From Candidatus Nomurabacteria bacterium (GTDB lineage: Bacteria; Patescibacteriota; Minisyncoccia; Phycocordibacterales; CALRBL01), in NCBI GenBank assembly GCA_963834935.1, contig CAWIDS010000001.1, positions 301,500 through 365,499 of the forward strand: a DNA stretch of 64,000 nt. The letters run 5' to 3'. Below the pieces are notes generated by a model that was not told where the DNA came from, ran no database searches, and saw only the letters and a list, made by a program, of their open reading frames with translations. The stretch's first letter is position 1. Each line of letters begins with the position of its first letter. Positions 15,191 through 63,119 of this stretch are shown in pieces. The translations under genes were made by a program, and so were the position numbers.

Positions 15191-15250
15191 ACTCTTTTGT
15201 GCTAAGATAGTAGCGAAAGGGTGGTAACTTACATTCTACAAATTTCTCTC

Positions 15251-15420: not shown

Positions 15421-15548
15421 GGTGCTCCTGACTGAAGCATATTCTTATAAAACCACCCCGTCAATTGACAGCGGGCTCTATTCCCTTGCACAAAAAATAT
15501 CTTATGATACAAATAATAAAAAATTAATTTTTATTATTCAAAAAACGT

Positions 15549-15758: not shown

Positions 15759-15784
15759 AGGCTCTCATTCTGTGGTAATATAAC

Positions 15785-17992
15785 GTGATGAACTTTCGGA
15801 AAGTGGTCAAACAAGAGCTTTCATACCTAGCTAAGCTTCCGCTTCGTTTCTATAATTATCTTTTAAGGGAAAAAGGTCTTATAAAGAACATGATTATCGT
15901 GTTGATGATCGTGTTCATTATCTGCGGTGGAATATTCATCTTGTGGGCAGCAAACTTGAAGACTCCGGATTTGAATTCGTTTGATTCGCGTCTAGCGGGA
16001 GTATCAACCAAGATTTACGATCGGACTGGAACCGTCCTCTTGTATGACGTCAACCAGCAAGTGAGGAGGACGGTCGTTCCCTTCGATGCTATCTCTCCTT
16101 ATCTTAAGGATGCTACCATTTCCATCGAGGATGAAGGTTTCTATAAGCATGACGGCATCCAAATAACTTCTATTATAAGAGCATTTTTCATTGACCTAGC
16201 CACTTTGCGCTTTGATCAAGGTGGATCGACCATCACTCAGCAGGTTATCAAGAACTCTCTTCTTACTTCCGACAAGACCATTTCGCGAAAACTGAAGGAG
16301 TGGGTGCTTGCTATAAAGCTTGAGCGCACCGCAAGTAAGGATTTCATCCTTAACCTTTATTTGAATCAGACTCCTTATGGAGGAAATATTTATGGAGTTG
16401 AGGAAGCAAGCAAAGCTTTCTTCGGAAAAAGCTCTGCTGACGTGGATATTGCCGAGGCAGCTTATATTGCCGCTGTCGCCCAGGCTCCAACCTACTATTC
16501 TCCATTCGGAAGCCATGTCGCTGATCTAGAACAAAGAAAGAATCTCGTGCTTAAAAAGATGTATTCGAATGGATATATAACAGAAGACCAGTATACGAGC
16601 GCAAAAAATGAAAAAGTTCAGTTCGAGCCTAAGGCTACCTCTTCGCTCAAGGCTCCCCACTTCGTGATGTTTATCTTGGACTATCTGGATAAGAAATATG
16701 GCGAGGATGCTGTCGATAGCGGAGGTTTGAAAGTAATAACTACTCTTGATTATAATATGGAATCGCAAGCTGAAGATATAGTTAAGAATTACGTGGAAAC
16801 GAATCAAAAGAAATTAGGGGCAGAAAATGGCGCTTTGGTAGCTATCGACCCCAAGAGCGGACAAATCCTTACTATGGTAGGTTCCCGCGACTATTTCGAT
16901 AATACGATTCAAGGAAACTTCAATGTGGCTACTGCGCACCGCCAGCCAGGATCTTCTTTCAAGATATTCACTTATGCCACCGCATTCAACGAAGGATATA
17001 CTCCTGATACCATCCTATTTGATACCAAAACGGAATTCAATACCTCTTGCAGCCCTGACGGAATTCCCCTTTCTTCAAACGTTACCTGTTATCACCCCAC
17101 CAACTACGAAGGGGGATATAAAGGCCCGATGACCATGCGCCAAGCATTAGCACAATCGCGAAACATCCCAGCAGTAAAAACCCTCTACCTAGCCGGAATA
17201 GAACAAACACTTGATACAGCAAAAGCTTTCGGTATACAGGGATTAGGTGAAGCTAATGATTATGGTTTGTCTCTTACCTTAGGAAGCGCGGAGGTGTCTT
17301 TACTCGATATGACAAGCGCTTATGGAACTTTTGGAAATAATGGATATCGAAACCCTTATACGGGAATCCTGAGCGTTCAAGACAAAAATGGAAATACCCT
17401 TGAACAATTTGCCACATCTACTCAGCAGGTCTACCCATTGCAGCCCGTGCTTGAAATCAATGATGTCCTTTCGGATGCTGTAGCTCGAAATGCCATATTT
17501 AAACTTAATTACATACAAGGAAGGAAAGTTGCATTGAAGACTGGTACAACAAACGACTCTCGCGATGCTTGGATAATCGGCTACACACCGAATATATCCG
17601 TCGGAGTATGGATGGGTAATAATGACAACCATCCTATGGCACAGATAGCCTCTGCGTTGATCGTAGGGCCTTTGTGGCAGCAATTCATGAACGATGTAGC
17701 TCTCAAGAACCTTCCTGTCGAGAACTTTACACCACCCCAACCTGTTGACCAGACCATAAAGCCGGTCTTGAGAGGAGTGCTGGATACGACAAACTTGCAC
17801 GATATCCTTTATTATGTGAATAGAGATGATCCTTTGGGCCCAGTTCCAACAAATCCGACAGATGATCCTGAATACGTCAATTGGGAATATGGCGTGCAGA
17901 ATTGGGCGGCCTCAAATGGATATAATATTACTCCTCCATACGTTCCCCCTTCTGCATCCGTTTCTACTACAACAAGCACGACGACTTATTAG
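15785..17992 (+). CDS. mrcA: Class A penicillin-binding protein 1A (bifunctional glycosyltransferase/transpeptidase)
   Basis: 735 aa; N-terminal TM, GT51 motifs (EDEGFYKHDGI, GGSTITQQVIKN), transpeptidase SxxK (PGSSFK), SxN, KTGTT. Confidence 0.9.
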   Translation: MMNFRKVVKQELSYLAKLPLRFYNYLLREKGLIKNMIIVLMIVFIICGGIFILWAANLKTPDLNSFDSRLAGVSTKIYDRTGTVLLYDVNQQVRRTVVPFDAISPYLKDATISIEDEGFYKHDGIQITSIIRAFFIDLATLRFDQGGSTITQQVIKNSLLTSDKTISRKLKEWVLAIKLERTASKDFILNLYLNQTPYGGNIYGVEEASKAFFGKSSADVDIAEAAYIAAVAQAPTYYSPFGSHVADLEQRKNLVLKKMYSNGYITEDQYTSAKNEKVQFEPKATSSLKAPHFVMFILDYLDKKYGEDAVDSGGLKVITTLDYNMESQAEDIVKNYVETNQKKLGAENGALVAIDPKSGQILTMVGSRDYFDNTIQGNFNVATAHRQPGSSFKIFTYATAFNEGYTPDTILFDTKTEFNTSCSPDGIPLSSNVTCYHPTNYEGGYKGPMTMRQALAQSRNIPAVKTLYLAGIEQTLDTAKAFGIQGLGEANDYGLSLTLGSAEVSLLDMTSAYGTFGNNGYRNPYTGILSVQDKNGNTLEQFATSTQQVYPLQPVLEINDVLSDAVARNAIFKLNYIQGRKVALKTGTTNDSRDAWIIGYTPNISVGVWMGNNDNHPMAQIASALIVGPLWQQFMNDVALKNLPVENFTPPQPVDQTIKPVLRGVLDTTNLHDILYYVNRDDPLGPVPTNPTDDPEYVNWEYGVQNWAASNGYNITPPYVPPSASVSTTTSTTTY

Positions 17993-18261: not shown

Positions 18262-19365
18262 CTACTTATTCATAGGCATGACAAGGTAAAAAAAGCTTTT
18301 ATTCCCGACTCCTTTTATGATAAGGGGTTTATTCAAGCCATCAAAAAGCAAGGAAACACTGTCGGAATCTATGGATTGGAAGCAATCAAAAATATTCTTG
18401 TAGTTGAAGCTTATTTGCAAATCTTCTCCCTCAAGAGATCCTGAAAGGAGGGTAACATTCTCACCAACATCGGTATTTTTGGTCTTTATTTCCATTTTCT
18501 TGTAAGTAGGGGAAACGGAAACCACCACCCTATTGAACGAATCTGAAAAAACATGAGCTAGTTTGAGTGCGTTGAGAAAATCTTGTTTCAATACCACTGC
18601 TTCAGTCTTTGATTCCTTGGGAATAATCTGCTTATATGAAGGGAAATTACCCTCAACTACCCTTGAAATGAGATAGAAATCATCAGAAGTGAAGGAAATC
18701 TGGTTTTTATCCAGACAAACCTTTATTTCCTCATCTTTTTCCTCAAGAATGCGGCAGATATCGGAAATATTCTTAGAAGGGATTAATATTTGATCAAAAT
18801 CAAGCTTTTCTTTAGTTTCTATCTTTTTTTCAGCAAGACGGAAGGAGTCAGTAGCTACAAAAACAAGGTTCTTGTCCTCGGGATAAATATAAACACTTGA
18901 AAGCTCGGGTTTGATTGTTGATATAGAGGCACAATAAGCGACAGAACGGAGCCCTTTGCAAAAGTCCTTGGAATTGATAGAAAACTCCTTACCGGCGTTT
19001 ATACGAGGTATGAGGGGAAACTCTTCAGAGGCTTGCAGCTTGATAGAAGATGATGATTTGTCGGACGAAACCATTAAAAGATCGTCTTTTCTTTCAAATT
19101 TAAGGCTCTTTTCCTTATCAAGGTTTGAAACGAAATTGCCTAAAGTCTGAGCAAGGACCACGGCCACACCCTCCTTTTCCAATTTTACAGGTATGGATAT
19201 CTCTATTCCTAGATCAAGGTTGGTTGATTTGATGATAAGTGAAGAATCCTTACCTTCCAAATAGACGCATTTCAGAATCTGATTAGATATAGAGCCCTTT
19301 CCTGCTATTTTTTCAGCTTTGGAAAAGGCTTGAGAGAAGCGATCTTTAACTGATTCGAATTTCAT
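18262..19365 (-). CDS. dnaN: DNA polymerase III beta subunit (sliding clamp)
   Basis: 367 aa, three-domain clamp architecture, directly downstream of dnaA. Confidence 0.9.
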   Translation of the reverse strand: MKFESVKDRFSQAFSKAEKIAGKGSISNQILKCVYLEGKDSSLIIKSTNLDLGIEISIPVKLEKEGVAVVLAQTLGNFVSNLDKEKSLKFERKDDLLMVSSDKSSSSIKLQASEEFPLIPRINAGKEFSINSKDFCKGLRSVAYCASISTIKPELSSVYIYPEDKNLVFVATDSFRLAEKKIETKEKLDFDQILIPSKNISDICRILEEKDEEIKVCLDKNQISFTSDDFYLISRVVEGNFPSYKQIIPKESKTEAVVLKQDFLNALKLAHVFSDSFNRVVVSVSPTYKKMEIKTKNTDVGENVTLLSGSLEGEDLQISFNYKNIFDCFQSIDSDSVSLLFDGLNKPLIIKGVGNKSFFYLVMPMNK

Positions 19366-19601: not shown

Positions 19602-20948
19602 TTACAAGAGGAGTTTCAACTCCTCTATTTCTTGAAGAAGGGTTCCGTCAACCTTCAGATCCTTTTTAATCTTGTCGCAAGAATGTATTACGGTGGTGTG
19701 ATCCCTTCCTCCTAATTTCTGTCCGATTGAAGGGTAAGATATGTTGAATATCTCTCTCAGAAGGTACATAAGCACTTGTCGTGGTTTAACCACTTCTTTT
19801 TTTCTTGATTTATCATAAATGCTTTCTTCCTCAATATTGTAAAAGCCAGAGACTATTTTAGTGACTTCTTTGATTGAGAGGTTCTTTACTGGCCTTTTAT
19901 TCACTTTTATAAGATTCTTTATCTCATTAAGCAACGGTTCTTTTCCTTTCGTCTCCATATAATGGACGATATTGTTGAAAGCCCCCTCAATTTCGCGGAT
20001 ATTACCTTCTATGTTGGCGGCAACAAACTCGATTATGGGGGTGCTAAGGGAAATGTTGTTCATCAAAGCCTTCTTTTTGACTATTTCAAGGCGTGATTCG
20101 TAATCAGGTTCAGGAATATCAACGATCATTCCAGCCACAAAGCGTGATTTAAGGCGATTTTCAAGGTTTGGTATGTAATTAGGATGAATATCCGAAGAAA
20201 AGATGATTTGTTTGTTGTTGTCATAGAGATAATTAAACAAATGGAAGAGTTCTTCTTGGGTTTTCTCCTTGCTGAAGAGGAATTGGATGTCATCCATAAT
20301 AAAGACATCGTATTTGCGGTATTTTTCCTTGAAAAAATGCATTTTATTCGCTTGGAGACAGTCGACCATCTCTTGGGAGAAGCGTTCTGAGGTAATATAG
20401 AATATTTTTTTTACCGATCCGGTGCTTTTTATGTGATTTCCGACTGCTTGCATGATGTGTGTCTTGCCCAAACCTGTCTTTCCATAGATGAAGAGAGGGT
20501 TGTAAGCTACTGGCTTGTTTATTATTGCTTGGCAAGCAGAGTAAGCGAGCTCGTTGAATGGCCCTACGACAAAAGTATCAAAAGTGTAACGTGGATTGAG
20601 ATTATCCTCCTTATTTACTGCTAATTTATCCAAAGGAAGCTCTCTTGTGTTTTTTGGTTGGGAGTTTTCTTTCTTTATTGAAGAGGCAAGCTCACTCTTT
20701 TGCTTGTCTGACACTGCATAAACAATAGAGCGCACGGATGGATCAAGATTTCGGAGAAGCTTCAGGAAAATATTGTTGTATTTATCCACAAGCCATGAAA
20801 TAACAAACGGATTAGGTACTCCAATGGTGATAACCCCCTCTTCCCTCTTTAGAATATGGGTATCTTTAAACCAAGTGTTGAATGAACCGAGAGATACAGA
20901 CAATTCTATTTCAACCAAAACGCTTTCCCATAGTTTTTTATCGTCCAT
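19602..20948 (-). CDS. dnaA: Chromosomal replication initiator protein DnaA
   Basis: 448 aa; AAA+ Walker [17 protein letters not shown]-terminal DNA-binding helix-turn-helix ([17 protein letters not shown]). Confidence 0.95.
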
Positions 20949-29212: not shown

Positions 29213-30964
29213 TTATTCCGAAACTACCCGAAGGACTTCTTCGATAGTAGTCACACCCTGCACCGCCTTGAATACCCCGTCTTCTATCATGGTAAGCATT
29301 CCTTCTTTCTTTGCCTGCGCTTCTATTTCATCTGACGTCGTTCCTTTCATGACTAATGCCTTGATAGGTGCGCTAACCTTGAGAATTTCATGTATGCCGA
29401 TCCTTCCCGCATAGCCATCTTCCGATTCAGCGCTTTTAATAGGCTTGTAGAACGGGATTGTCTGCCACTCCGCTTTTTCATCGACTATCTTTCTTTCTTC
29501 AGGAACTCCAGAACCCGGGCAATGTCGACTTTCTTGGAAAGCATATCAAGCTCATCTTTGGTGAGAAGGTATTTTTCCTTGGTGACAGCCAGTTTCCTGA
29601 TAAGGCGCTGGCCTATGATACATTCAAGGTCGAGACAAGAGGAATGGCTCTATGTGCATGTCGATGAAGCGTGGAATGGCGCCGGCGGCTGAATTGGTGT
29701 GAAGGGTCGAGAGTACAAGGTGTCCAGTGAGCGAGGCGTTGATGGCGAGGGATGCCGTTTCATTGTCGCGGATTTCCCCCACCATGATGATATCCGGGTC
29801 CTGCCTGACAAGGGAGCGGAGTCCCGAGGCGAAAGTAAAACCGATTTCTGGCTTTACTTGGGTTTGATTGATCCTCTTCATCTGGTATTCGACAGGATCC
29901 TCAATCGTGGAGATATTCACATCGGCTGTATTCAGGATATCTAGAACGGTATAGAGGGTCGTCGTCTTTCCTGACCCTGTCGGACCAGTAGTAAGGATCA
30001 TTCCAGTCGAGAGTTTTGTCGCTTCATATATCCTTTCTAATCCTTCTCCATGGAAGCCGAGATGCTCGAGGGTAAAGCCGGAAACATTTTCCCTAAGCAA
30101 ACGCATTACTGTCTTTTCTCCGTAGTACACAGGCAGGATAGACACTCGAAAAGAGACATTTTCCCCATTCATTTCGATCTTGAAACGGCCGTCTTGGGGA
30201 AGCCTTTTTTCGTCGAGCTTGAGGCTCGAAAGGACTTTGATGCGGGCTGTGATGGAATCGCCTGCATTTTTTGGCAAGATCATGGCGTCGTGAAGTATTC
30301 CATCTATGCGGTAGCGTACTACCACTTCATTTTCTTGAGGTTCGATATGAATATCCGAAGCGTTCTGGATGATGGCATGTTTCAGGAGCGTATCTACGAC
30401 TCGGACTACCGGCAAGTCCTCGGCCATCTTCTGAAGGTCTTTGATGTTGAGTTTGCCGTCCTTGTTCTGATCCCCGACTGATTTTATGGAGACTGATTCC
30501 TTCTGGATGATATCACCGAAGTCAGCCTTGAGGCTTTTCTGGTATTGGAGGATTGCCGACTTCATCGAATTCACGTCAGTAAGGCGTGGAAGAATCTTCA
30601 AGCCCACTTTCTTCTTGACGAAATCGAGTGCGCTCAAGTCATCGGTGTCGAGCATTGCCACCTCAAGCGTCTTATCATCTTTCTTGAAGCCGATGATATT
30701 GTGCTTGCGGGCAATCGGCTCGGGAATGAGAGAGAGAACACTGAAATCTATCTTTTGATCTTTGAGATCCACGAATGGGATCCCAAGTATGTAGGCTTGA
30801 ATTTTTCGGAGATCTTCCTCGGTAATCAGGCTTTTTTGCAGCAGAATATCACCCATGTCTACCCCCTTTTTCTCTGATTCTTCGCGTGCAGTAGCAAGTT
30901 CTTTTTCGGAAACCAATCCCGAATCCATTATGAACTTTTCAAATTGAGCTTTGTTTATGAACAC
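29213..30964 (-). pseudogene. Second PilB/GspE-family secretion ATPase, C-terminal region disrupted by >=3 frameshifts
   Basis: 446-aa frame with Walker A GPTGSGKTTT, Asp/His boxes stops at LLSRP*; the C-terminus continues in two other frames (…IIGQRLIRKLAVTKEKY… then …YKPIKSAESEDGYAGRIGIHEILKVS…GVTTIEEVLRVVSE*) homologous to the PilB C-terminus. Confidence 0.75.
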
Positions 30965-45599: not shown

Positions 45600-46625
45600 T
45601 TGAGGGAGTCCAAACCCTACTCTTTATTAAGTAACTTTGGAGAGTATGATACACTAATACGATATAAAAGTCAAACATGACCAAAAACCAATTTCTCTCT
45701 ATCTTGAAGCGTGCAATAAAGCACCGAGCAAAACCCCAAAGCGTTCCCTGTCGTTGCCTCGATTGTTGTAATGAAAGACAAAAGCGTCAAGGTAAGCCTG
45801 TAGGTGTTGCTTCGAAATGACCTTGTAAGTGCCTTTGATGCTTCTCTTTAGGTGAGCCACGAAAGTCTCAATGGTGTTGATATGAATATCACCTCTCACG
45901 TATTCTCCTTTGCTGTGGTCAACCGAGTGTCGGTCGTAAGTCTTATCAGATCTTTTGTATACCTTGCTACTGTCGGTGATGATGCTTGTAGCCTTAGTCT
46001 CGATATTCCTTTCAATGAAGTCCTGCATTGTCCTCGCAGAGCTGTCTTCCATGACTTCCGCTCTCATCTTTCCATATCGCTCTACCGCCATGGTGATGAT
46101 TGATTTTCTAGCCATTACTTGTCCTAGCTTTTCATTATTCTTTCCTGCGTTCCCTTTGCCTCCGAAGTAAGCAGTATCTATCTCCACGTCTCCTTTGAGC
46201 TTTAACTTGTCCTGTGGCAAAGCCTTGCGTATCAGGCTCAATATCCTCCAAGCGCACTTGTAGGTAACTCCAAGCTGTCGTTCCAGTTCCTTAGCCGAGA
46301 TACCGCTCTTGGCGTTTGAGAAGATAAAGATTGCATGAAACCACAAGGATAGTGGAGTATCTGACTTGTGGAAGATTGTAGTCGAAGCAGGGGCAATCTG
46401 AAAACGACACTTCGAGCATTGATACTGCTTGCGACCCTTTATCTGTCGGTACGTTCCGCCACATGAGCAAGAACGGCTGTGCAAGGTATCGAATATCAAG
46501 TCTAAGCATGTCTCGTCTGTGGGGAAGTCCCTCCTTAAATCTGCTATTGAGTATTTTGTTTCTTTTGCCATGTACCTATCCTATACCCTAGTGATTATGT
46601 TGTCAAGGGATAAGTGTGGATAACT
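45600..46625 (-). mobile_element. IS1595-family insertion sequence (boundaries approximate)
   Basis: Contains single transposase ORF; terminal inverted repeats not confidently resolved. Confidence 0.4.
45699..46571 (-). CDS. IS1595-family (ISXO2-like) DDE transposase with N-terminal zinc-ribbon
   Basis: 290 aa; N-terminal CxxC...CSKC zinc ribbon (transposase zinc-ribbon domain), DDE core, typical length. Confidence 0.85.
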   Translation of the reverse strand: MAKETKYSIADLRRDFPTDETCLDLIFDTLHSRSCSCGGTYRQIKGRKQYQCSKCRFQIAPASTTIFHKSDTPLSLWFHAIFIFSNAKSGISAKELERQLGVTYKCAWRILSLIRKALPQDKLKLKGDVEIDTAYFGGKGNAGKNNEKLGQVMARKSIITMAVERYGKMRAEVMEDSSARTMQDFIERNIETKATSIITDSSKVYKRSDKTYDRHSVDHSKGEYVRGDIHINTIETFVAHLKRSIKGTYKVISKQHLQAYLDAFVFHYNNRGNDRERFGVLLGALLHASR

Positions 46626-49249: not shown

Positions 49250-49996
49250 ATGAAGGAGACACCAGGCATACATACTTTCCAAACTGATCTCGCAGATGCG
49301 GTCAGCGACGAGTCTATCTCAAAGATAGACATATTACTCGAGAAGAATAAGAAAAATGAGACATCGGGTCTTGCCGAGGAGAGAAAAAACATTCTGCCGG
49401 TCATCATCGTCATATTAGGGTCTGTCGTAATATCTTTGATATTGATTTTTATTTACATACAATATAGGAGTAACAAAGCTCCAACTGTTCAAGCTCCAGT
49501 TATTGCTCCTCAAGAATTGATATATTTTGATTCTTTGAAAGAGGTTTCACCATCAACTTACGAATATAAAGCAAAGCCGGATGCGATAGGAGTAACTTTC
49601 TACCAGACAGATGCCTCCGCTGGGAATTTCTTAAGCATCCTCTCGCCATCCATCCCTCCGTCATTTCTTCGTTCCATAAGCGACAAATGGTTTTTCGGCG
49701 GAGTTCCTGCAGGGAACTTCATTATCCTGAAGACTGATTCTTTTCAGAGGGCATACCCTGGCATGCTGGAATGGGAACCGTCAATGAAGAAGGATTTGCT
49801 CGGCCTCTTTGATTCAAGTTCGACCGTCTCCGTCGGAAATTTCAATGATCAAGAAATAGGCAATTTGGCTGTGAGGGTGCTGCATGACCAGCAGGGCAAT
49901 ACACTATTCATGTATGGCTTCACGGATAATAATACTATTTTGATGGCTAAGAATAACGATACTTTTAACGCCATTTCCGGCTTATTGTTAAAGTAA
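49250..49996 (+). CDS. Hypothetical single-pass membrane protein
   Basis: 248 aa, one TM helix near residue 50, no family. Confidence 0.5.
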   Translation: MKETPGIHTFQTDLADAVSDESISKIDILLEKNKKNETSGLAEERKNILPVIIVILGSVVISLILIFIYIQYRSNKAPTVQAPVIAPQELIYFDSLKEVSPSTYEYKAKPDAIGVTFYQTDASAGNFLSILSPSIPPSFLRSISDKWFFGGVPAGNFIILKTDSFQRAYPGMLEWEPSMKKDLLGLFDSSSTVSVGNFNDQEIGNLAVRVLHDQQGNTLFMYGFTDNNTILMAKNNDTFNAISGLLLK

Positions 49997-51977: not shown

Positions 51978-53192
51978 CTAGAAAGGATTGATTCCTCCAC
52001 GGACTTCGAAATGCACATGGACACCTGTTGAATCTCCAGTGCTTCCCATTCGCCCGATGACATCTCCTTGGCTTACTTTCTCTCCTTGCGTGACAGAGAT
52101 GGAGTTCATGTGCGCATAAAGAGTCTCCATTCCGTTAGGATGCTTGATGACCACGTAGTTTCCATAGCCTCCATTCCAGCTGTTTCCGCCGCGAACGACG
52201 ATGACTGTTCCGTCCGCCGCTGCCATGATAGGAGTATTGAGGGAGCTTGCAAGGTCGACCGCATTATGTCCGTGGAGGCCTTGGGTCTTGACGCCGCCAT
52301 GAATCGGCCTGATGAAATATCCGCCATCACTCTTGATAGGAACTTTCTGGCCATTTACGAGAGGGGTGATTGCAGCTAATCGAGGCACTGATTGCGGAGG
52401 AACGGGGGTGCCAGCAGAGGCAGAGGCACTGACCGAAGCGCTTATTGAGCCCGATGTCGTGCTTGGAGCATCACTTGCTTCGCCGTCAGGAATGATAATC
52501 TGGTCTCCAACAGAGAGATCTGTCTCGCTTGAAAGGCCGTTATACGAGAGTATTTCAGCAGAGTCTCCTTTGAAAGAAGAAGCAATACTCTTCAGAGTAT
52601 CGCCTTTTTTGACCGTGTATTTGATTCCGGAAACGGGAAGGATGACCAGCTCCTGGCCTTTTTTAAGCGTTGATTTGCTGTTCAGGTCATTGGCCCATCT
52701 GATGGTATTTTCTGTCACGTCGAACATGGCAGCTACGCTTTGAACAGTATCCCCGTCCTGGACGATGTAGGTGCTTATCTGATCTGATGATGCCGAGGCG
52801 TCTGTCGATGTTCCGGGAGTAGGTTTCCCATTATCCATAAGAGCTTGACCCGCAACTAAATAAGTGGTTGAACTGTCATCAACCGCCTGAGGGTCGATAT
52901 TCGTATTTGCCTGAAGAAGCGGCACGGTTTGGATATTAGCGGATGAGCTCGATGAATCAGTGTCTAATGCATAAGCCACGCTTGTTCCTGTACCTGCAAG
53001 ACCTAACAGCCCCGATGAGGCGAGGGTCAATAAGAGGGCTATGTTGAGAGGTGAAGCGTTCGATATCGCGCGCTTGATGCTCTTATGTTTGTTTCTTAAA
53101 ATAAGTTTTCTTGAGTTTAAATCTATGACCTTCGCACATTCCATTTCATTCTGTATCCTTGCATGATGTCTGTCGGAGAAGTGCTCATTCAA
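51978..53192 (-). CDS. M23-family peptidoglycan endopeptidase with two LysM domains
   Basis: 404 aa; LysM (YIVQDGDTVQSVA..., YTVKKGDTLKSIA...), M23 motifs HxxxD (HNAVD) and HxH (VHVHFE). Confidence 0.85.
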   Translation of the reverse strand: MNEHFSDRHHARIQNEMECAKVIDLNSRKLILRNKHKSIKRAISNASPLNIALLLTLASSGLLGLAGTGTSVAYALDTDSSSSSANIQTVPLLQANTNIDPQAVDDSSTTYLVAGQALMDNGKPTPGTSTDASASSDQISTYIVQDGDTVQSVAAMFDVTENTIRWANDLNSKSTLKKGQELVILPVSGIKYTVKKGDTLKSIASSFKGDSAEILSYNGLSSETDLSVGDQIIIPDGEASDAPSTTSGSISASVSASASAGTPVPPQSVPRLAAITPLVNGQKVPIKSDGGYFIRPIHGGVKTQGLHGHNAVDLASSLNTPIMAAADGTVIVVRGGNSWNGGYGNYVVIKHPNGMETLYAHMNSISVTQGEKVSQGDVIGRMGSTGDSTGVHVHFEVRGGINPF

Positions 53193-53287
53193 TGATATCG
53201 AGCGCTAGACCGTTGTCAACAACGGCTCGATAACAAGTCTTTATACAATATATATGATAAAATTCATGCATATAAATAGGACTTATT

Positions 53288-56200
53288 ATGCCTGAAGTAC
53301 CAAAAAACCCAGAAGCAAGAAATAATAGAGAAGGGAATCCGCTTCCCGAGCTCACTCTTGAGAGAGTAAATATTTTGCTTCAGAAGGTAGAATCTTGCCT
53401 GAATAAGCTTTCCTTGCCTATACAGCAGGAAAATATAGAAGAATACAGCATGCTCAACTCCTCGGATTTTTTTCTGAGGATGTTCAGGGATTATATTGGA
53501 AACGTGACGGCTTATCCGCCTCCGGATGGCAGGGCTCTCGAAATTCTCACACAGCTTTCTTCGGAGCAAGGTCCTTATTGGGATGTCTTGAATGGGAATT
53601 ATGAAAAAAGAGAGCAAATGCAGGAACCAGAAACCCTGGCAAGTCCTGAAAGTGATTTAGCGGAAGAAATAGCAGGAATACAAGACGTCTATGAATTGTT
53701 TGAAATTTTTAACAGGGATGAACAGGATCAGAAAATCGCACGTATGCTGGGGGACGTGATAAAAACCGTAGATAGCATTGAAAAGTTCGGGTCTTGGGAA
53801 AAACCGCATCAGTATCTTGATGCTATCATCCGAGCTCTTCCGGAAGAAAATGGATTGAGAGCAAAAGTAATCGAATTGGTGAATCAGAGATTCGCTGACG
53901 AGATATTAAAAATGAAAGGAGATGAACAACCTTCCGAACTCCCTTCGGAACTAGAACCAGATATCGAGAACAAGACAGATGCCGTAAATCCGGAAATCAC
54001 CCGAGGACTTTCAGCTCTCGGCATGACTAAGGAACAGCTTGAAGAAGTTCCCGGTTTTGCTGACATCAAGGATTCTGAAGGTCAGACGATATTCCTTTTG
54101 AGGAATCTTGCTCAGATAAAGCGCCGTGTTATCGCCGCAGAGGCGCGCGAGCAGACTGAAAGCGAGATACGCCAGACCAAAAATGGCATAGCGCGGGCAT
54201 TGAAGAGAACCTTTTCAAACGGAAAGGTAAACAAGAAAGAGCAGGCTCTTTCGCGGGAAGCCTTTGATTTTGAAAAGTACAAGGATGAAGTCGCTAATGT
54301 CATCGAGATAGTGAAAAGTGTCGGAGACATCGCATCATATGAAGGAGATGAAGGAAAGATGCGCTTGTATATAAGGTATACCGAAGATGTTTCTTTCAAT
54401 ACGGCCGCCAGCGAATACACCGAAGTTCCGCCAGAATACAAATGGAAAGACTATTCATCAAAAGAGAAAAAGATATTCCAAGAAAGAAAAAAAACATATC
54501 TGAGAGAAAGGGAAAATCTTCTGAACGCTTCCGGATCATCTGCAAAGGAAGCAATGCTCCAGCTGAATGATGTTGATTTAAAGATAAAGATAAATCAATC
54601 GCTTCTTGAGAATCCGAATGCGGAACTTGAGCTCCGAAGGCTTGCCGAAGTAAAAGGATGGGATATGAGGAACGAAGCCGCAAAAGCTCAGCTCGGCATA
54701 GAAGGGAGGTCATCATTGATTGGAGGAGTCATCCAAGGCGCCGGACAATTGGGACTGAGGATGGGCGCAAGAGCCGGAGCAAAATCACTCTTGGCGGGAT
54801 GCATAGGCATCGTCTCAGCACCCCTTTCTGCGGCCATAGTCGGAGCAGGCTTCGGTGCGTTCAGAGGCGGCAAGAAAGCGCATGAGCGCCTCGGAAAGGA
54901 AGAGGAACTGATCAGGATGGGTTCGGAAGAGAAGACTACAACAAATAAGAAGCTCAAGAGATTGATCGAAGAAAAGGCCCGCTACGTGAAGCGAGAGGTG
55001 GAAATTTCCCGCGACTGGCATCCTATCAATGAGGTTGATCAGGCTGAGAAAGAAGGCGAGCTTGCCAGAATCAAAGGAAGAATAGAAGAAATCCAATCAG
55101 AGATAAACAGCGTCAGAGAAAAAAGCACTGATCAGAATTTCGTCAAAGCCGACGACTTGTCGGAAAAGATCGGCCGCTTGAACAGGCTTGCTGAGATGAG
55201 TTACATTTCTTGGTGCAATGAGCCAGGAAACGCCAACCGTTCCCTGGACGAATACCATAAGAAGCACAAGGAATGTGTCGAGGCCCTTGAAGTGCGGCTT
55301 GAGTATGCGCAAAGGAAGCTCACCGAAGGCAGGATTTCGTTCGGCGCTGAGAAGGAGGCGATCGGCAATAAATTCAATTTCATAAAGGTACTTTCCAAGG
55401 CAACGGCTTGTTTGGCGACCGATACCTATTTTTATGATGAGGATTCGCAGCAGGAAATAGTCGGCAAGAAGGGATCGACACGACGAGGAAGGCTCGCAGG
55501 TATCATCGGCCTTGCAGAAGAAAGGATAAAAAATAATCAGCGCTGGTATGTAGGGAAGCAGGCCGCTTTAGGTGCGGTTACCGGAGGACTGGTCTCAGGG
55601 TTGGTGTCCGGCGCGATTCAAGAATATTCAGGACTTTTCAGTTCCCATATGGCTGGAGACATTCATGATCATGCGCGTGAAGTCGCGAGCAAGTCAGGAT
55701 ATGTCGCAGGAAAAGATTTCGAGAATACTGTAACCGAAGGGGTAAAGAATCAGGTCGCTCATAATCATGCGGAACATCTGATCAATAGCTCTTCTCAAGC
55801 AGCAGCATCACCGACGCCTGATTCATCACCTATACAGGCGCCTGGCGTTCATCACTCTGATTTTCATATCGATAATTCGCCGCTTCGACGATTGCTAGTA
55901 ACGGATCATCCAGCGTCTGCTGCCGTTCCACAGCATGCCGCTTCGGTAAAGCCGCCGGCGGGACTGAAAGTCGAAATTCCTGCAGCTGCCGCTCCGAAGC
56001 CGGAAGTTCCGGTCGCAGTCATTGAAAAGCCATTCACTTTCGTATTGAAAAACGAACATCAGAGCCGAGAGTATGCGCTCGTCCAGTATTTCAAGAGCAA
56101 AGGATTGAGCTCGCATGAAGCCGGCATCAAGGCGCACCGGACGCTCAAGGAACTGTTCGGTCCGAAAGGGGAAAGGACGCTCACTCCCGTGCACGCTCAT

Positions 56201-57172
56201 GACAATGTGCTCATTTCTGAAAAAGACGGAAAGATAAGTATCTCATTAGTTCCCAAGGCTCACGTCGTGGATACACCGCCCCAAACTGAAGTAGTCGAGA
56301 CCATCCTGATAAAGGATCATCAGATCGATCAGCTCACCCATCACGAGATACATACGGATTCGGCGGAACGGGCGGTCACTCGGACGCTCCACGAGAATGC
56401 AGACAAATACGGATACAACGGAGACATGCAGGATGCGCACGCCCTCCATGACTGGACAAGCGGCATGACCAGGGAAGTGCTCAAGCAGAATCCCGACATC
56501 GCGCACGCGATCACTCATGACGGCAACGCGCTACAGCTTCATCGCACTCCGACTGGCGGCTGGTTCGCAGAAGTAAAGAAAAGCATGGCTGATGTCCATC
56601 AGAACGCGCAGACGACGACTGCTCCTGTTGCCGCAGCTGCGCCTGCATCAGCCGACCATGTCGCATCTACAGCTGATGTTGCTCAGAACACGGCAACGAC
56701 TGTCGCTCATGAGATGCAGACTCCTCCCGAAGTGACGCAACTCCTTTCATCGTATGAAGTGAAAGCTCCTACTAACCTTCCTACCATCCTTGAGAAAATA
56801 CTCGAAAAAGATCCGCGATTCATGTCATTGAGCGCTGATGCCAAGGATCGGGCATTATATGATCTCTTTATAAATGAGTATGTAAAGGAGGGAGCAAGCT
56901 CTTACAAGGATATTGGCATTACTTCAGGTAATCCATTCGATATAGCTTCCGGAACTCTTTCCCTCGACAGTAATTTCTTGGAGAATAGCGATGTCGTTTC
57001 AAGTATCATAAAAGAAGCTACTGATCCGGCACACGTAGATTCTTTGAAAGATGGATTGGGACTCAGGGAACATTTGAGCGACTTAGCGAATGCTTTGAAA
57101 GGATTGAACGCGAAAGATGTCGATGCGAAGGCTATCGCAGAGAAGCTGAAAGAATTGAGAGAAGCGAAATAA
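53288..57172 (+). CDS. Giant hypothetical protein (1294 aa) with coiled coils and two glycine-zipper hydrophobic segments
   Basis: Intact ORF; no signal peptide; GxxxG-rich segments SLIGGVIQGAGQLGLRMGARAGAKSLLAGCIGIVSAPLSAAIVGAGFGAF and AALGAVTGGLVSGLVSGAI; His-rich and Ala/Pro/Thr-rich C-terminal third. Confidence 0.7.
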   Translation: MPEVPKNPEARNNREGNPLPELTLERVNILLQKVESCLNKLSLPIQQENIEEYSMLNSSDFFLRMFRDYIGNVTAYPPPDGRALEILTQLSSEQGPYWDVLNGNYEKREQMQEPETLASPESDLAEEIAGIQDVYELFEIFNRDEQDQKIARMLGDVIKTVDSIEKFGSWEKPHQYLDAIIRALPEENGLRAKVIELVNQRFADEILKMKGDEQPSELPSELEPDIENKTDAVNPEITRGLSALGMTKEQLEEVPGFADIKDSEGQTIFLLRNLAQIKRRVIAAEAREQTESEIRQTKNGIARALKRTFSNGKVNKKEQALSREAFDFEKYKDEVANVIEIVKSVGDIASYEGDEGKMRLYIRYTEDVSFNTAASEYTEVPPEYKWKDYSSKEKKIFQERKKTYLRERENLLNASGSSAKEAMLQLNDVDLKIKINQSLLENPNAELELRRLAEVKGWDMRNEAAKAQLGIEGRSSLIGGVIQGAGQLGLRMGARAGAKSLLAGCIGIVSAPLSAAIVGAGFGAFRGGKKAHERLGKEEELIRMGSEEKTTTNKKLKRLIEEKARYVKREVEISRDWHPINEVDQAEKEGELARIKGRIEEIQSEINSVREKSTDQNFVKADDLSEKIGRLNRLAEMSYISWCNEPGNANRSLDEYHKKHKECVEALEVRLEYAQRKLTEGRISFGAEKEAIGNKFNFIKVLSKATACLATDTYFYDEDSQQEIVGKKGSTRRGRLAGIIGLAEERIKNNQRWYVGKQAALGAVTGGLVSGLVSGAIQEYSGLFSSHMAGDIHDHAREVASKSGYVAGKDFENTVTEGVKNQVAHNHAEHLINSSSQAAASPTPDSSPIQAPGVHHSDFHIDNSPLRRLLVTDHPASAAVPQHAASVKPPAGLKVEIPAAAAPKPEVPVAVIEKPFTFVLKNEHQSREYALVQYFKSKGLSSHEAGIKAHRTLKELFGPKGERTLTPVHAHDNVLISEKDGKISISLVPKAHVVDTPPQTEVVETILIKDHQIDQLTHHEIHTDSAERAVTRTLHENADKYGYNGDMQDAHALHDWTSGMTREVLKQNPDIAHAITHDGNALQLHRTPTGGWFAEVKKSMADVHQNAQTTTAPVAAAAPASADHVASTADVAQNTATTVAHEMQTPPEVTQLLSSYEVKAPTNLPTILEKILEKDPRFMSLSADAKDRALYDLFINEYVKEGASSYKDIGITSGNPFDIASGTLSLDSNFLENSDVVSSIIKEATDPAHVDSLKDGLGLREHLSDLANALKGLNAKDVDAKAIAEKLKELREAK

Positions 57173-57202
57173 AAAACGATTGAGCTGTGATATATTGGAT
57201 GG

Positions 57203-59116
57203 ATGGAAACTCTCAATGAGCAGCAGAAAGAAGCGGTCCTTCAGACAGAAGGGCCGGTTCTTGTCTTGGCCGGAGCTGGCGCGGGAAAGACCAAGACGCT
57301 GGTGCATCGCATGCTTCATCTGATAGAGAAGGGCGTGCCGCCGCAGGCAATACTTGCCATCACTTTCACCAACAAAGCGGGAAAGGAAATGCGCGAGCGC
57401 GTTCACCAGCTGCTTTCTTCTTCTCATCCGCATATGGGCACCCCGTTCATCTCGACATTTCATTCCCTCGGCGTGCATATCATCAAAGACAATGCCGAGC
57501 TTCTCGGCTTGCCTCGGCATTTTTCCATCTTCGACAGAAGTGACAGCAAGAGGGCGATCAAGGATAGCTTGGTGAAAGCTGGCTTTGATCCGAAGCAATA
57601 CGATCCCTCGAATGTCTTGTCGGCTATCAGTAGGGAAAAAGGAGATGCCGTTTCGCTCCGAGAATTTGAGAATAATGTCGGCAATGATTATCTTAAAAAA
57701 GTGTCACTCGCTGTCTGGAGGGAATACGAAGCGATCTTGAAAAAGGAAAAAGCTCTCGATTTCGACGATTTGCTTTTGAAAACTCTTCTTCTGCTAAAGC
57801 AGAATGAGAATGTCTTGGCGAAATATCAGGACATTTGGAAATATATACACATAGATGAGTATCAGGATACGAACAAAGTGCAGTATCAAATTTCCAAATT
57901 GCTTGCAGCGAAGAGTAAGAATATCTGCGCGGTAGGGGACATAGATCAGAACATATACAGCTGGCGCGGAGCTGACATCCGCAACATCCTCAATTTCGAA
58001 AAGGATTATCCTGATTCAAAGATCATCTTGCTTGAGGAAAATTACCGCTCGACAAACAATATCCTCGAGGCGGCCAATGAAGTGATCAAGAAGAATGTCC
58101 ACCGCCGCGAGAAGAATCTTTTTACCCGCAAGGAGGGAGGGGAGAAGATTTCACTATACGGAGCCTATGATGAAAGCGACGAGGCAGACTACATCGCCCG
58201 CACTTCAGGCAATCTTATCGAGAAGGGGGTTTCTCCTGATGAGATAGCGGTACTCTATAGGGCCAATTTCCAGTCGCGGGTCATCGAGGAAGCTTTTCTT
58301 TCTCGCAGCTTGCCTTATCAGGTGCTCGGCGTGCGCTTCTTCGAGCGAAAGGAAATCAAGGATGCCCTTTCGTACTTGCGCCTTGCTCTCAATCCTGATT
58401 CCGAATCCGATTTTAAACGCATCATAAATGTACCGACGCGAGGAATCGGCAAAGTGACTATCGACAAGATCATCCAAGGGAAAAAGGAAACTTTGCCGGC
58501 GGCTGTTGCGGCGAAGTACGGGTATTTCCTCGGCTTGCTGGTGAAAATAAAGGCAGAGGCTCTTTCCGGAAGGGTTTCAGATACCATAACCTATATATTG
58601 AACGAAGCGGGACTTTTCAAAATGTACAAGGAAGGCAAGGATGAAGACGAAGACAAAGTGGAAAACCTCAAAGAGCTTGTGACTTTGGCTAAGCGATACG
58701 ACCATCTTCCGGCAGAAGATGGCATCGGCGCATTTCTCGAAGACGTATCGCTCGCTTCCGACCAGGATGAGATGAATGAGAACAGGAAGACTGTGAAGAT
58801 GCTGACGGTTCACTCGGCAAAAGGTTTAGAGTTCGATTATGTCTTTATCGCCGGCCTCGAAGAGGATCTTTTTCCCCACAAGAAGATGAATGAATCGAAG
58901 ATCTCAAGTGAGCAGGCTGAAGAAGAACGGCGCCTTTTTTACGTGGCATTGACCCGCGCGCGCAAGAAGCTTTACCTTTCCCATGCGCTCGTGCGCACTA
59001 TTTTCGGCATGAAGAAGTACAACATCCAATCGGAATTCGTCTCGGATATCCCGACTAGTCTTGTTGAAAATGTCGAAAACAATGTCGGCATAAAGTCGAT
59101 CTTCATCGACTATTAG
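57203..59116 (+). CDS. pcrA: ATP-dependent DNA helicase UvrD/PcrA family
   Basis: 637 aa; SF1 motifs: Walker A AGAGAGKT, DEYQDTN, C-terminal VALTRA. Confidence 0.9.
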   Translation: METLNEQQKEAVLQTEGPVLVLAGAGAGKTKTLVHRMLHLIEKGVPPQAILAITFTNKAGKEMRERVHQLLSSSHPHMGTPFISTFHSLGVHIIKDNAELLGLPRHFSIFDRSDSKRAIKDSLVKAGFDPKQYDPSNVLSAISREKGDAVSLREFENNVGNDYLKKVSLAVWREYEAILKKEKALDFDDLLLKTLLLLKQNENVLAKYQDIWKYIHIDEYQDTNKVQYQISKLLAAKSKNICAVGDIDQNIYSWRGADIRNILNFEKDYPDSKIILLEENYRSTNNILEAANEVIKKNVHRREKNLFTRKEGGEKISLYGAYDESDEADYIARTSGNLIEKGVSPDEIAVLYRANFQSRVIEEAFLSRSLPYQVLGVRFFERKEIKDALSYLRLALNPDSESDFKRIINVPTRGIGKVTIDKIIQGKKETLPAAVAAKYGYFLGLLVKIKAEALSGRVSDTITYILNEAGLFKMYKEGKDEDEDKVENLKELVTLAKRYDHLPAEDGIGAFLEDVSLASDQDEMNENRKTVKMLTVHSAKGLEFDYVFIAGLEEDLFPHKKMNESKISSEQAEEERRLFYVALTRARKKLYLSHALVRTIFGMKKYNIQSEFVSDIPTSLVENVENNVGIKSIFIDY

Positions 59117-59925: not shown

Positions 59926-60333
59926 TTATTTGCTGGTATAAAGCGTCGTTCCCAACTGCTGGATCGAGTACTGGACGCTCTCTGTACTTTCGCATTCCGA
60001 ATCGACGGTGATGCAGGTCCCTCCGCTTATGGCATCGCCGAGCACTACTGATTGAGGCGCTACGTCCCACCATGAATAAAGTCCCCAACCGATGAAGGGA
60101 ATTGGTATCATGTTCTGCCACATGAAGATCATCGAGCCGCTGATCGGCGATGTATATTGGCCTTTGTCGATCTGAAGCTTCAGGCCGTTGCAGCAGACAT
60201 CGACGCTCGATATCGTGCCCTCAAGATTTTGACGGACTGCACTGGCAATCTCCGCATGCGCGGCAAACGGCGCGATAACAAAAGAAAAACTCAAAATGAT
60301 TGAAAGGGCTGCGATGTAATATTTCTTATTCAT
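59926..60333 (-). CDS. Small secreted Cys-containing protein (hypothetical)
   Basis: 135 aa with signal peptide. Confidence 0.45.
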   Translation of the reverse strand: MNKKYYIAALSIILSFSFVIAPFAAHAEIASAVRQNLEGTISSVDVCCNGLKLQIDKGQYTSPISGSMIFMWQNMIPIPFIGWGLYSWWDVAPQSVVLGDAISGGTCITVDSECESTESVQYSIQQLGTTLYTSK

Positions 60334-61043
60334 TGTATCTTGAGATAAATCTGATAAGCATTGCTGACTCCTTTTGAATTCTCAACCGTCACGAACATCG
60401 GTATTGGCTGGATTCTCTGAATGGTGGTGTTCCGCTGGTCGCTGTCCATGTTCTTCATCTTGGCATCGAACAGGCTTTGGAGGCTTGAATCTACTTTTAC
60501 TTCGAGCTGGCCATTGATGACAGGAACATTGCTGTAGACATCATATGTCGCCATGACTGTCGAAGTAGCTCCGAAATTGCTTCCCGATATATATATAGTA
60601 TCGCCATTCTTCACTGTCTGAGGCGAAATGCCGGTTATTACCGGACTGCTGTAGTTGGCATTCTGGAGATAGAGGCTATTGAGGAATGCCGGATTGGATG
60701 AGGTGGCGAGGGTGTTCAGAACCACACGGGTATTAGCTTCGACATATCCGTATGGCGTGAAGTACGGACCCGCCCAGGTGCCTAAATTGTAATCAGTCTG
60801 GAAGATGTCGAGAGCTTTGAGCGTCTTGATGCCGAAATAAAAGCTTTCTTTTCCGGGAGAGCCTGCTCCGGAAGGCGACACCTGTGTGGTCGACGAGGCA
60901 TTGAGTACCATCTGAAGGTATTTTACCTGCGGATCAGTCATCCCTTTCCTCAGGTCTTTGGTGAAAAGGTCAGCCGCTTGGGCAGCGTGTGCCGAGGCGA
61001 GCAGAGTGAGAAGAAAAAGTGCTGATAGAAGGATTTTTTTCAC
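60330..61043 (-). CDS. Secreted protein with peptidoglycan-binding-like and IPT/TIG-like domains (hypothetical)
   Basis: 237 aa; signal peptide; LRKGMTDPQVKYLQMVLN (PG_binding_1-like); PVITGISPQTVKNGDTIYISGSNFG (IPT-like). Confidence 0.5.
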   Translation of the reverse strand: MKKILLSALFLLTLLASAHAAQAADLFTKDLRKGMTDPQVKYLQMVLNASSTTQVSPSGAGSPGKESFYFGIKTLKALDIFQTDYNLGTWAGPYFTPYGYVEANTRVVLNTLATSSNPAFLNSLYLQNANYSSPVITGISPQTVKNGDTIYISGSNFGATSTVMATYDVYSNVPVINGQLEVKVDSSLQSLFDAKMKNMDSDQRNTTIQRIQPIPMFVTVENSKGVSNAYQIYLKIQ

Positions 61044-61098
61044 CTTTTGATTATATCATCAGTAGTTTTTTTGTGTATAACTAAGGTATAATGTCGTC

Positions 61099-62058
61099 AT
61101 GGTTGCTCCAAGCAAAAGAATACAGGCATTGATAATAATAGTCGTCGCTTTTTTTGCCGCTTTCTTCCTCTATCACTCGAACGTCAAATCTGCAGTCCTT
61201 TCTCTTTTTTCGAAAAACAAGCCGAGCAGCAGTTCGCTTGTGCTTGATCAAGCTACCAGCACCGATCAATCAAATATCGATTCCGACGGCGACGGCCTCA
61301 AGGATTGGCAGGAAACATTGTGGGGAACTGATTCTCATAACCCTGACACTGACGGCGACGGCACTCCTGACGGGGTTGAGGTGGCGGAAGGAAGAGATCC
61401 TTTGGTGAAAGGTCCTAATGACAGCCTTGAGCTGACCCGCGGAGTGGCAAGCACTTCTCTCGATGCTTTTGCAGGTAGCGCATCGGAAGACCAGGGAAAT
61501 ATCTCGACACAGCTTTCGCAGACTCTCTTCTCGCAGTTCATGTCGGTTCAGACGAATGGCACGCTCGATGCTGATTCTGAAGCGCAGATCATTTCGAACA
61601 CGCTCGCTTCGGTAAATCCTGGCACCATTCCTCCGAAGTACACCATTTCAGATATCAAAGTCGTTCCGGAAAACAAGACTACCCTCCGGGCCTACGGAAA
61701 TGCTTTTGCCCAGATACTTTCCGACAACAATGACCTCATATCCGGCGAACAATCCAACGAAGCAGCCATCCAATCATATGAAATCATGATCAACGCCCTT
61801 TCGAAGCTTTCTGTTCCTGACGGCCTGGTGCTTAACCACCTGAAAATCCTTAACGATTTCAATGTTTCTGATCAGTCGCTCCAGATAATGGTTAATGATC
61901 AGACTACCGACCCCGTCAAAGCTCTCCTTGCGGTGAAGACATTGCAGACCAACCAGGCAGACATGAAGCAACTGTTTACAAATATCCAGGTTGAAATGCA
62001 GAACAATGGTATAATATTCGCAAAAAGCGAAATAGGAGCAATATGGAACAATTCTTAA
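61099..62058 (+). CDS. Membrane-anchored protein with thrombospondin-type-3-like Ca-binding repeats (hypothetical)
   Basis: 319 aa; N-terminal TM; DSDGDGLKDWQE and DTDGDGTPDGVE Asp-rich repeats. Confidence 0.5.
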   Translation: MVAPSKRIQALIIIVVAFFAAFFLYHSNVKSAVLSLFSKNKPSSSSLVLDQATSTDQSNIDSDGDGLKDWQETLWGTDSHNPDTDGDGTPDGVEVAEGRDPLVKGPNDSLELTRGVASTSLDAFAGSASEDQGNISTQLSQTLFSQFMSVQTNGTLDADSEAQIISNTLASVNPGTIPPKYTISDIKVVPENKTTLRAYGNAFAQILSDNNDLISGEQSNEAAIQSYEIMINALSKLSVPDGLVLNHLKILNDFNVSDQSLQIMVNDQTTDPVKALLAVKTLQTNQADMKQLFTNIQVEMQNNGIIFAKSEIGAIWNNS

Positions 62059-63119
62059 AAACAATCACCCTCGTCATCATTGCTATCCTCGCTTTCGGCG
62101 GCGCTGTGGCCAATGCTGGTACGACTCTCCAGCCTGCGGCAAATACCCAAGGAGCTAATTACGTAAAAGGCCAGTATAATACTAATTCCGGCGCTGCCAC
62201 TTCACAGGCTGCTATCTCAGGAGTAGGCGATGCAGCAAGCTGCATCGGTTCAGGCTATGTCTCAAGCCTTATTTCCTCGGCTATCACCACTATTATTCCT
62301 TCTTCATTTACCAAAGTGGGAACGATCTCTGGAAACGATAAGGCTAGCAGTGGAGGTTTGGAGGTCGGCGATCCGCCCAGCCTCGACTCCATCGCTTATT
62401 GCGCCATCAATGCCATCCTGACCTATATCACCCAAGCGACCGTCAACTGGATCAATTCCGGCTTCAATGGCAATCCTGCTTTCGTCCAGGATCCTGAGAA
62501 ATTCTTCAGCGACATTGCCGACAATACCGCAGCCAATTTCCTTCAGGAAGTGGCCGGCCAGGTCACTGGTGTGAATATTTGTCAGCCATTCCGGGTAGGT
62601 ATTGTGACAGGGCTTGGCAGCGGACAAGCGAATCCTTCTTCGATACAAGGCTGTTCCTTGAGCCAGATCGGGAACAATATCCAGAATTTCCAGGTGTATA
62701 CTAGTCCTGGAGGAACAGGGTCAGGCGGTTGGGGTAGCTGGCTCGCCGTCACTCAGAATCCCCAGAACAATCCCATGGGAGCATATATGCAGGCTCAGCA
62801 GGAATTGCAGAGAAGGGTATCGATACAAGGCAATAGCGCCCAGATTGATCTTAGTACGGGAAGAGGATTCCTTTCGTTTAAGAAATGCAATCCTGATTCC
62901 ACTACCACCGATAGCAGCGGCAATCCTGTGACAGTCAAAGGAGCCTGCGAAATCACCACGCCGGGAAGCGTGATTGAGAACACCTTGAATAATCGCTTGA
63001 ATGCTGGAACGGACCGACTAAAAGTAGCGGATAAATTTGATGAGGTTGTGAGTGCATTGGTGAACCAGCTCATTAAGGTTGCGTTAAGTGATGTTCTCAA
63101 TAACAACAGTACTCAATAA
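62043..63119 (+). CDS. Secreted Gly/Ser/Thr-rich protein (hypothetical)
   Basis: 358 aa with signal peptide, no family. Confidence 0.5.
   Translation: MEQFLKTITLVIIAILAFGGAVANAGTTLQPAANTQGANYVKGQYNTNSGAATSQAAISGVGDAASCIGSGYVSSLISSAITTIIPSSFTKVGTISGNDKASSGGLEVGDPPSLDSIAYCAINAILTYITQATVNWINSGFNGNPAFVQDPEKFFSDIADNTAANFLQEVAGQVTGVNICQPFRVGIVTGLGSGQANPSSIQGCSLSQIGNNIQNFQVYTSPGGTGSGGWGSWLAVTQNPQNNPMGAYMQAQQELQRRVSIQGNSAQIDLSTGRGFLSFKKCNPDSTTTDSSGNPVTVKGACEITTPGSVIENTLNNRLNAGTDRLKVADKFDEVVSALVNQLIKVALSDVLNNNSTQ

Follow-up and report, generated by a model that had tools for sequence, protein, structure and literature searches.

We analysed a 64,000-nucleotide stretch of DNA from a Candidatus Nomurabacteria bacterium (contig CAWIDS010000001.1; hereafter the window, with positions counted from its first letter) and followed up the gene at 53288-57172 (+), which encodes a protein of 1294 amino acids (aa). 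This protein belongs to an undescribed, unnamed family of large, mostly helical and fast-diverging proteins of Paceibacteria-type bacteria of the Candidate Phyla Radiation (CPR). We propose, with a probability of about 0.45, that the family acts as a membrane-anchored scaffold whose three folded C-terminal domains (D1-D3) would lie outside the cell. An earlier note, made from the letters of the window, had described the product as an orphan and as a large effector or envelope-associated protein. Its envelope part is supported by a hydrophilic N-terminal half, by glycine-zipper segments with basic flanks and by C-terminal domains carried on linkers.

A family recovered by exhaustive search

The gene is a single unbroken open reading frame (ORF) of 1294 codons plus a stop, as the earlier note had stated, and the reverse strand across it is riddled with stops. 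No other start codon lies between its ATG and the in-frame stop upstream. A fast word-indexed protein search with the full-length protein returned the query alone (a singleton cluster), and word-indexed searches with the core alignment and with the C-terminal part gave at most one weak match. An exhaustive HMMER search with residues 95-1294 against 1.84 billion cluster representatives, however, recovered 154 relatives at E<=1e-3, 47 at E<=1e-10 and 21 at E<=1e-30, which refutes the orphan claim and shows that 53288-57172 is a real gene under selection. The best matches reached E = 2.7e-142, with 31-38% identity over most of the length, and the relatives range from 750 to 2600 aa. Because the exhaustive search found the family, the null result of the word index reflects a limit of the method with low-complexity candidates rather than biology. 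For queries rich in Glu, Lys and Ala, an orphan verdict drawn from a word-indexed search alone is unsafe.

Family membership is borne out by core similarity together with the motifs R495, P512, GxxxGxxxG, EEELxRxG and LEVRLEY. The iterated core profile recovers 144 of the 150 retrieved sequences, and a profile comparison also joins the L016 protein to the family (hhalign probability 100%). Scanning metagenomes with a 10-sequence alignment yielded four loci only. Within the window, the core profile also gave a chance-level match (E = 1.5e-4) to a YibE/F-family membrane protein at 4437-5609 (+), probably a product of its Gly/Ala-rich transmembrane helices rather than a sign of homology.

A clear homologue among characterised housekeeping families was looked for, and no characterised family matched. 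The best Pfam and NCBIfam hits of the 1294-aa protein (E = 0.1 and E = 0.14, respectively) fell far below the curated cut-offs, and no Pfam model matched any of 27 family members at E<=1e-3. Neither PHROGs nor PADLOC models matched the target or three relatives. Profile searches of the PDB with both family alignments found no chain, and the confident domains of the AlphaFold2 (AF2) models had no significant structural match among known PDB folds. The protein itself does not show an M23 peptidase domain with HxxxD and HxH motifs.

Domain organization and predicted membrane topology

The N-terminus is hydrophilic and lacks a hydrophobic leader or signal peptide, and residues 1-300 carry a net charge of -24, so that the acidic, signal-less N-terminal region described in the earlier note stands. 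Kyte-Doolittle hydropathy exceeds 1.2 at two places only, residues 496-526 (maximum 2.03) and 758-778 (maximum 1.65); both peaks are dense in small-xxx-small spacings and correspond to the two GxxxG-rich hydrophobic segments noticed before. The first contains a GxxxGxxxG pattern in a hydrophobic helix that is conserved in the homologues. Across 10 sequences of about 33% identity, R495, P512, G519, G523 and G527 are invariant, as is the E538...E547 motif downstream; invariance of the proline and the three glycines at this level of divergence places the glycine zipper beyond chance. GxxxGxxxG motifs of this kind typify membrane helices that oligomerise and often form channels (PMC10434224).

The distribution of charge around these segments is consistent across the family. 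Segment 500-525 is essentially uncharged (0.1 lysine plus arginine residues, K+R; mean hydropathy 1.44), and the 15 residues after the hairpin hold 5.0 K+R. The 15 residues before helix 758-778 hold 4.9 K+R, and the 15 after it hold 0.6 K+R and 1.9 aspartate plus glutamate. According to the positive-inside rule, basic flanks mark the cytoplasmic side of membrane segments. By this rule, the K+R pattern would place the stalk (residues 529-757) in the cytoplasm and the part after residue 778 outside. Likewise, since the protein has no signal peptide and its N-terminal 470 residues are highly charged, the N-terminal half should be cytoplasmic. We infer that the hairpin at residues 474-528 either forms a re-entrant wedge with P512 at its tip or spans the membrane twice as a tight hairpin, and the invariant GxxxGxxxG face suggests close packing with helix 758-778 or between copies of the protein.

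A domain map was drawn from family alignments and two AF2 models built on them (Table 1). Residues 230-800 are predicted to be almost wholly helical. In the models, a helix at 485-507 is followed by a turn at P512 and a second helix at 512-543, and a stalk helix at 732-780 runs unbroken into the Gly-rich segment 758-778. The conserved domain at residues 233-470 carries the motifs LGxTxExLxxIPxFxxIxxSEGK, FNxAAxxYxxxPPEYxW and NDxDFxxKxxQxLxxxPxAExEL, and the stalk carries the invariant E538-E-E-L-x-R-x-G-x-E547 motif, LEVRLEY...KLxEGxIxFG and TRR. The C-terminus, as modelled, holds three confidently folded small domains between disordered linkers. D3 also occurs in the stand-alone fragments P0024 and P0028, and a possible origin of D1 and D2 by internal duplication was not significant at the sequence level. 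The His-, Ala/Pro/Thr-rich composition attributed earlier to the C-terminal third is seen at residues 801-1200, with 8, 6 and 10 His per 100 residues and enrichment of Ala (up to 18), Pro (up to 10) and Thr.

Relatives differ freely from one another in the N-terminal region and in the linkers. A helical module of about 95 aa with the pattern W-x-EY-x-GKG-x-(Y/F)-E-L occurs in one to three copies in the N-termini of 17 of 151 members (P0005, P0010, P0013, P0015, P0018, P0021 and P0023 among them), and much of the length variation of the family arises because this module is repeated. The module is undetectable in the 1294-aa protein.

Table 1. Features of the large gene, its product and its immediate neighbours (window coordinates)
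Feature	Residues	Position (strand)	Remarks
2xLysM + M23 peptidase		51978-53192 (-)	Hydrophobic N-terminal anchor; HxxxD/HxH visible in translation; conserved left neighbour
Promoter-like site, ATAACA-17-TATGAT		53230-53258 (+)	In the 95-bp divergent intergenic region; consensus match only
AGGA		53278-53281 (+)	6 nt before the ATG of the 1294-aa ORF
Acidic hydrophilic N-terminal region	1-215	53288-53932 (+)	Not conserved even in closest homologues
Helical domain with one small beta-hairpin	233-470	53984-54697 (+)	Conserved; predicted local distance difference test (pLDDT) 75-92
Gly/Ala-rich hydrophobic hairpin	474-528	54707-54871 (+)	Invariant R495, P512, G519-x3-G523-x3-G527
Conserved helical stalk	529-757	54872-55558 (+)	Variable insert at ~550-615; ends basic (K+R ~5 per 15 residues)
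Second Gly-zipper hydrophobic helix, putative span	758-778	55559-55621 (+)	G762 and G766 conserved
Two His-rich helices after the putative span	786-839	55643-55804 (+)	pLDDT ~80
Disordered Ser/Pro/Ala/His-rich linker	840-913	55805-56026 (+)	pLDDT <50
D1, beta-alpha-alpha-beta-beta	914-989	56027-56254 (+)	pLDDT >90; QSREYAL, VHKGDxIxIxExDGK
D2, alpha/beta, element order as in D1	1001-1099	56288-56584 (+)	pLDDT ~85-96
Disordered Thr/Ala/Pro/Val-rich linker	1100-1143	56585-56716 (+)	From composition and AF2 model
D3, mainly helical	1144-1294	56717-57169 (+)	pLDDT >90; YEVxAPTNL, DPRF, GIxSGNPFDI
PcrA/UvrD-type helicase		57203-59116 (+)	31 bp 3' of the large gene; gap without terminator-like site; conserved right neighbour

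Genomic context of the large gene

The large gene is inherited vertically in a conserved housekeeping block with the order (XerC-like)-S15-NYN-hypothetical gene-DksA zinc finger-ComM-M23/LysM (-)-large gene-PcrA-KsgA. In the window it is divergent from the LysM/M23 peptidase gene, as first reported, and it is probably co-transcribed with the PcrA gene, which the KsgA gene follows. The earlier note had proposed a look at synteny in related genomes. The block is found at no fewer than nine loci: the order M23/LysM (-), large gene, pcrA, with a family member in the slot, is seen in the window and in L081, L083, L087, L090, L092, L093 and L016, and L091, which begins at a contig end, shows only the gene with pcrA and ksgA. 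The best relatives of the neighbouring PcrA (at most 60% identity) come only from metagenome-assembled genomes of Patescibacteria (Paceibacteria, Parcubacteria, Nomurabacteria and others).

No other gene of the block diverges as fast as the large one. Compared with L081, identity is 77% for PcrA, 58% for ComM, 51% for the M23 protein and 33% for the large protein; compared with L083, it is 82% for NYN, 62% for PcrA, 52% for ComM, 48% for the M23 protein and 24% for the large protein. Rapid divergence is common for exposed proteins. The hypothetical gene of the block at 49250-49996 (+) encodes a 248-aa protein without a Pfam match that keeps its position between the NYN and DksA zinc-finger genes; with an identity of only 29% to its L083 counterpart, it too is a syntenic gene that evolves fast. 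L001 and L009 have a PNPase gene in this stretch, where the window has none.

The slot itself, which spans 53193-57202 in the window, is variable among the Paceibacteria loci L001-L045. It is empty, with the M23/LysM (-) gene directly abutting pcrA, in about 30 of the roughly 50 related genomes, and in at least eight others it contains between one and three different large ORFs, in L014 together with a HerA/VirD4-like ATPase gene. These unrelated-looking proteins also have a long Gly/Ala-rich hydrophobic hairpin and a later short hydrophobic segment. They show weak blastp links to the family and share a C-terminal domain with the L016 member. Neither jackhmmer nor hhalign joins the slot ORFs of L013, L014, L017, L020, L027, L029, L032, L034, L043 and L045 to the family. 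An extra 570-aa gene upstream in L087, considered as a split-off N-terminus, showed no similarity.

More distant members lie in other surroundings. The L086 member is two genes downstream of FtsK (1920-4505), the L096 member directly downstream of ScpA (1391-2080), and the L088 member two genes downstream of an FtsQ-type POTRA protein (4648-5571) and three genes upstream of a VirD4-like (DUF8128/TrwB/TraG-D_C) ATPase (13999-16458). The L095 member is five genes upstream of ParC/GyrA (9082-11634), the L094 member stands beside glycosyltransferases and Wzy within eight genes of FtsW-MurG-MurC, and the L085 member adjoins a toxin-antitoxin pair. These contexts may reflect a repeated association with division, segregation or the translocation of DNA, in loci too few for statistics.

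The window as a whole is ordinary chromosome near a replication origin; its genes include dnaA, dnaN, polA and those for a class A penicillin-binding protein, two PilB-type ATPases, NusA, trigger factor and RNase Y, with one IS1595 transposase. The dnaA (19602-20948, -) and dnaN (18262-19365, -) genes coincide with the GC minimum (0.35, at 18-20 kb), which is probably the origin, about 33 kb from the large gene. The two PilB/GspE-type (T2SSE + MshEN) ATPases (11480-13192, +, and 29624-30964, -) fit type IV pilus machinery, which is commonly reported in CPR bacteria. The IS1595-family (ISXO2-like DDE) transposase gene at 45699-46571 (-), beside an Exo_endo_phos gene and a XerC-like recombinase gene, is the sole mobile-element gene seen near the block. 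Downstream of ksgA, 59926-63119 holds genes for a 135-aa protein (-), a 237-aa TIG-domain protein (-), a 319-aa TSP3-repeat protein (+) and a 358-aa protein (+), all probable envelope proteins; the set recurs in the same order in L087 and in part in L016.

Possible functions and comparison with known systems

As a membrane-anchored scaffold, the protein would keep its N-terminal half and stalk in the cytoplasm as a helical platform. The glycine-zipper hairpin would dip into the membrane, or cross and re-cross it, with the invariant GxxxGxxxG face packed against the second helix or against other copies, and helix 758-778 would cross the membrane. Flexible linkers would then display the His-rich helices and D1-D3 on the outside, within reach of the wall or of another cell. 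The weakest step of this proposal is a connection with cell division or with remodelling of the wall; it is hinted at because one clade has an active-type LysM/M23 neighbour, distant members have division and segregation neighbours, and the layout resembles that of EzrA and MapZ.

Several observations weigh against this proposal. Insertion energies on a Hessa-type scale are about +2.4 and +3.2 kcal/mol for the best 19-residue windows of the target and +2 to +6 kcal/mol in homologues; with such marginal energies for both segments, stable membrane spanning is plausible, not assured. For residues 446-511, a range that takes in the first arm of the hairpin, AF2 confidence stays below 50. A LysM-like nature of D1 and D2, suggested by their beta-alpha-alpha-beta order and the VHKGD motif, was rejected by hhalign, and known scaffold, wall-binding and division proteins showed no fold or sequence similarity to the family. 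The argument from neighbours draws on few loci, and these from very small genomes, and the synteny at nine loci may come from common descent rather than functional coupling. Furthermore, the many genomes with an empty slot mean that the protein is not universally required.

The main alternative, which we consider unlikely, has the protein attached peripherally to the membrane from the cytoplasmic side, as a scaffold that organises chromosome segregation or division machinery, with the P512-tipped hairpin and the second Gly-rich helix as mere monotopic wedges or anchors and with D1-D3 inside. It would account for the marginal hydrophobicity of both segments and for the basic residues on both sides of the hairpin, and it agrees with the positions of distant members near FtsK (L086), ScpA (L096), FtsQ (L088) and ParC/GyrA (L095), with that of the window clade in the XerC-ComM-PcrA block, and with the long helical repeat N-termini of relatives, which resemble cytoskeletal linkers. 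However, the sharp fall in K+R from 4.9 to 0.6 across helix 758-778 and the shift from a Glu/Lys-rich N-terminal half to an Ala/Thr/Pro/His-rich C-terminal part both fit a change of compartment. Pro/Thr-rich linkers are also more typical of exposed proteins.

Going beyond a scaffold, the family could form a trans-envelope device specific to CPR bacteria, in which a cytoplasmic helical platform, an oligomeric glycine-zipper hairpin assembly and external domains would serve as a host conduit or contact site, or would stand in for canonical divisome scaffolds that are missing. In the latter variant it would couple the FtsK, ScpA, XerC and PcrA neighbours with the adjacent LysM/M23 wall hydrolase. 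This would be a new machine without counterpart in cultivated bacteria, and we regard it as improbable; the 1294-aa protein is not demonstrably a new kind of system.

We give still less credence to an exported pore former or translocator directed at a host or competitor, whose hairpin would be kept in a soluble helical bundle until it inserts into the target membrane, in the manner of glycine-zipper toxins, colicin-type hairpins or Inc/translocator proteins. An invariant GxxxGxxxG in a marginally hydrophobic helical hairpin between long helices would suit such a protein, as would its rapid sequence divergence and the frequent epibiotic life of CPR bacteria with large surface proteins, and glycine zippers are essential in the membrane-damaging toxins TelE, CdzC/D and VacA (PMC10434224). 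The toxins named there, however, are much smaller and unrelated. The large gene lacks a signal peptide, an adjacent secretion system and an immunity-like gene, and the most conserved parts of its product are the N-proximal helical domain and the stalk, not a toxin-like C-terminus. Together with vertical inheritance in a housekeeping block and the lack of matches in the phage and defence libraries (PHROGs and PADLOC), these features speak against the effector part of the earlier note. A phage or mobile-element remnant, such as a tape-measure-like protein, might be suspected from the size, helical content, Gly-rich hydrophobic segments, adjoining M23 peptidase and variable genomic slot, but we reject it, since PHROGs gave no match, 2.9 million viral contigs held no relative, the surroundings contain no phage genes and show ComM, PcrA and KsgA flanks in nine loci, and the M23 gene keeps its place in genomes from which the large gene is absent.

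No function is known for over half of the genes of CPR/Patescibacteria, and large lineage-specific envelope proteins are prime candidates for roles in CPR division, envelope integrity and host contact. What appeared to be a singleton is now a defined family of about 150 sequence clusters with a domain map and a conserved genomic address. Its invariant residues R495, P512, G519/G523/G527 and E538-E540 are suited to mutagenesis, and D1-D3 are three confidently modelled domains without a known fold match. A scaffold for division or host contact, if confirmed, would supply a missing piece of CPR cell biology. CPR genomes commonly contain uncharacterised families of this kind, and the orphan and effector claims should be dropped.

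Known systems share individual features with the family. Phage tape-measure proteins are long and helical, with Gly-rich hydrophobic stretches, and are often encoded beside an M23 lysin. The 1294-aa protein has the same traits beside its M23 peptidase, but it has no tail genes nearby and its chromosomal synteny is conserved. Chlamydial Inc proteins and type III secretion system (T3SS) translocators combine a bilobed hydrophobic hairpin of 40-60 aa with coiled coils. The present protein has a Gly/Ala-rich hydrophobic hairpin, about 50 residues long, between long helices; in distant family members its first lobe shrinks to about 10 residues. Unlike in those proteins, the hairpin lies at residue ~475 and not near the N-terminus, the gene is inherited in a housekeeping block, and no T3SS genes are evident among the annotated ORFs of the window. 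With VacA, TelE, CdzC/D and Mic10-type hairpins the family shares GxxxGxxxG in an uncharged Gly/Ala-rich helix, along with a second small-xxx-small helix. The glycine zipper is a motif and not a family, and no sequence or fold relationship of these proteins to the 1294-aa protein was detected; here the zipper sits mid-protein between large helical and folded domains, whereas the toxins (PMC10434224) are small secreted proteins.

In Patescibacteria, proteins of very large size tend towards surface targeting (PMC13059738), and the protein described here likewise has a CPR host, more than 1000 aa, one or more putative membrane segments, a lineage-restricted distribution and fast divergence. Those surface proteins carry signal peptides and adhesin domains (FN3, integrin-like and others), whereas the present family has no recognisable domain and half of the 1294-aa protein is predicted to be cytoplasmic. 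EzrA and MapZ/LocZ, division scaffolds of Gram-positive bacteria, join a helical part in the cytoplasm to a membrane anchor and, in some cases, to an extracellular wall-binding domain. The predicted layout here is similar, with a long helical cytoplasmic region, a membrane anchor and a possible outside domain, and so are the neighbours, a wall hydrolase gene in the window and division or segregation genes in relatives. The family, although undescribed, thus falls within a broadly familiar class, that of large membrane-anchored helical envelope proteins.

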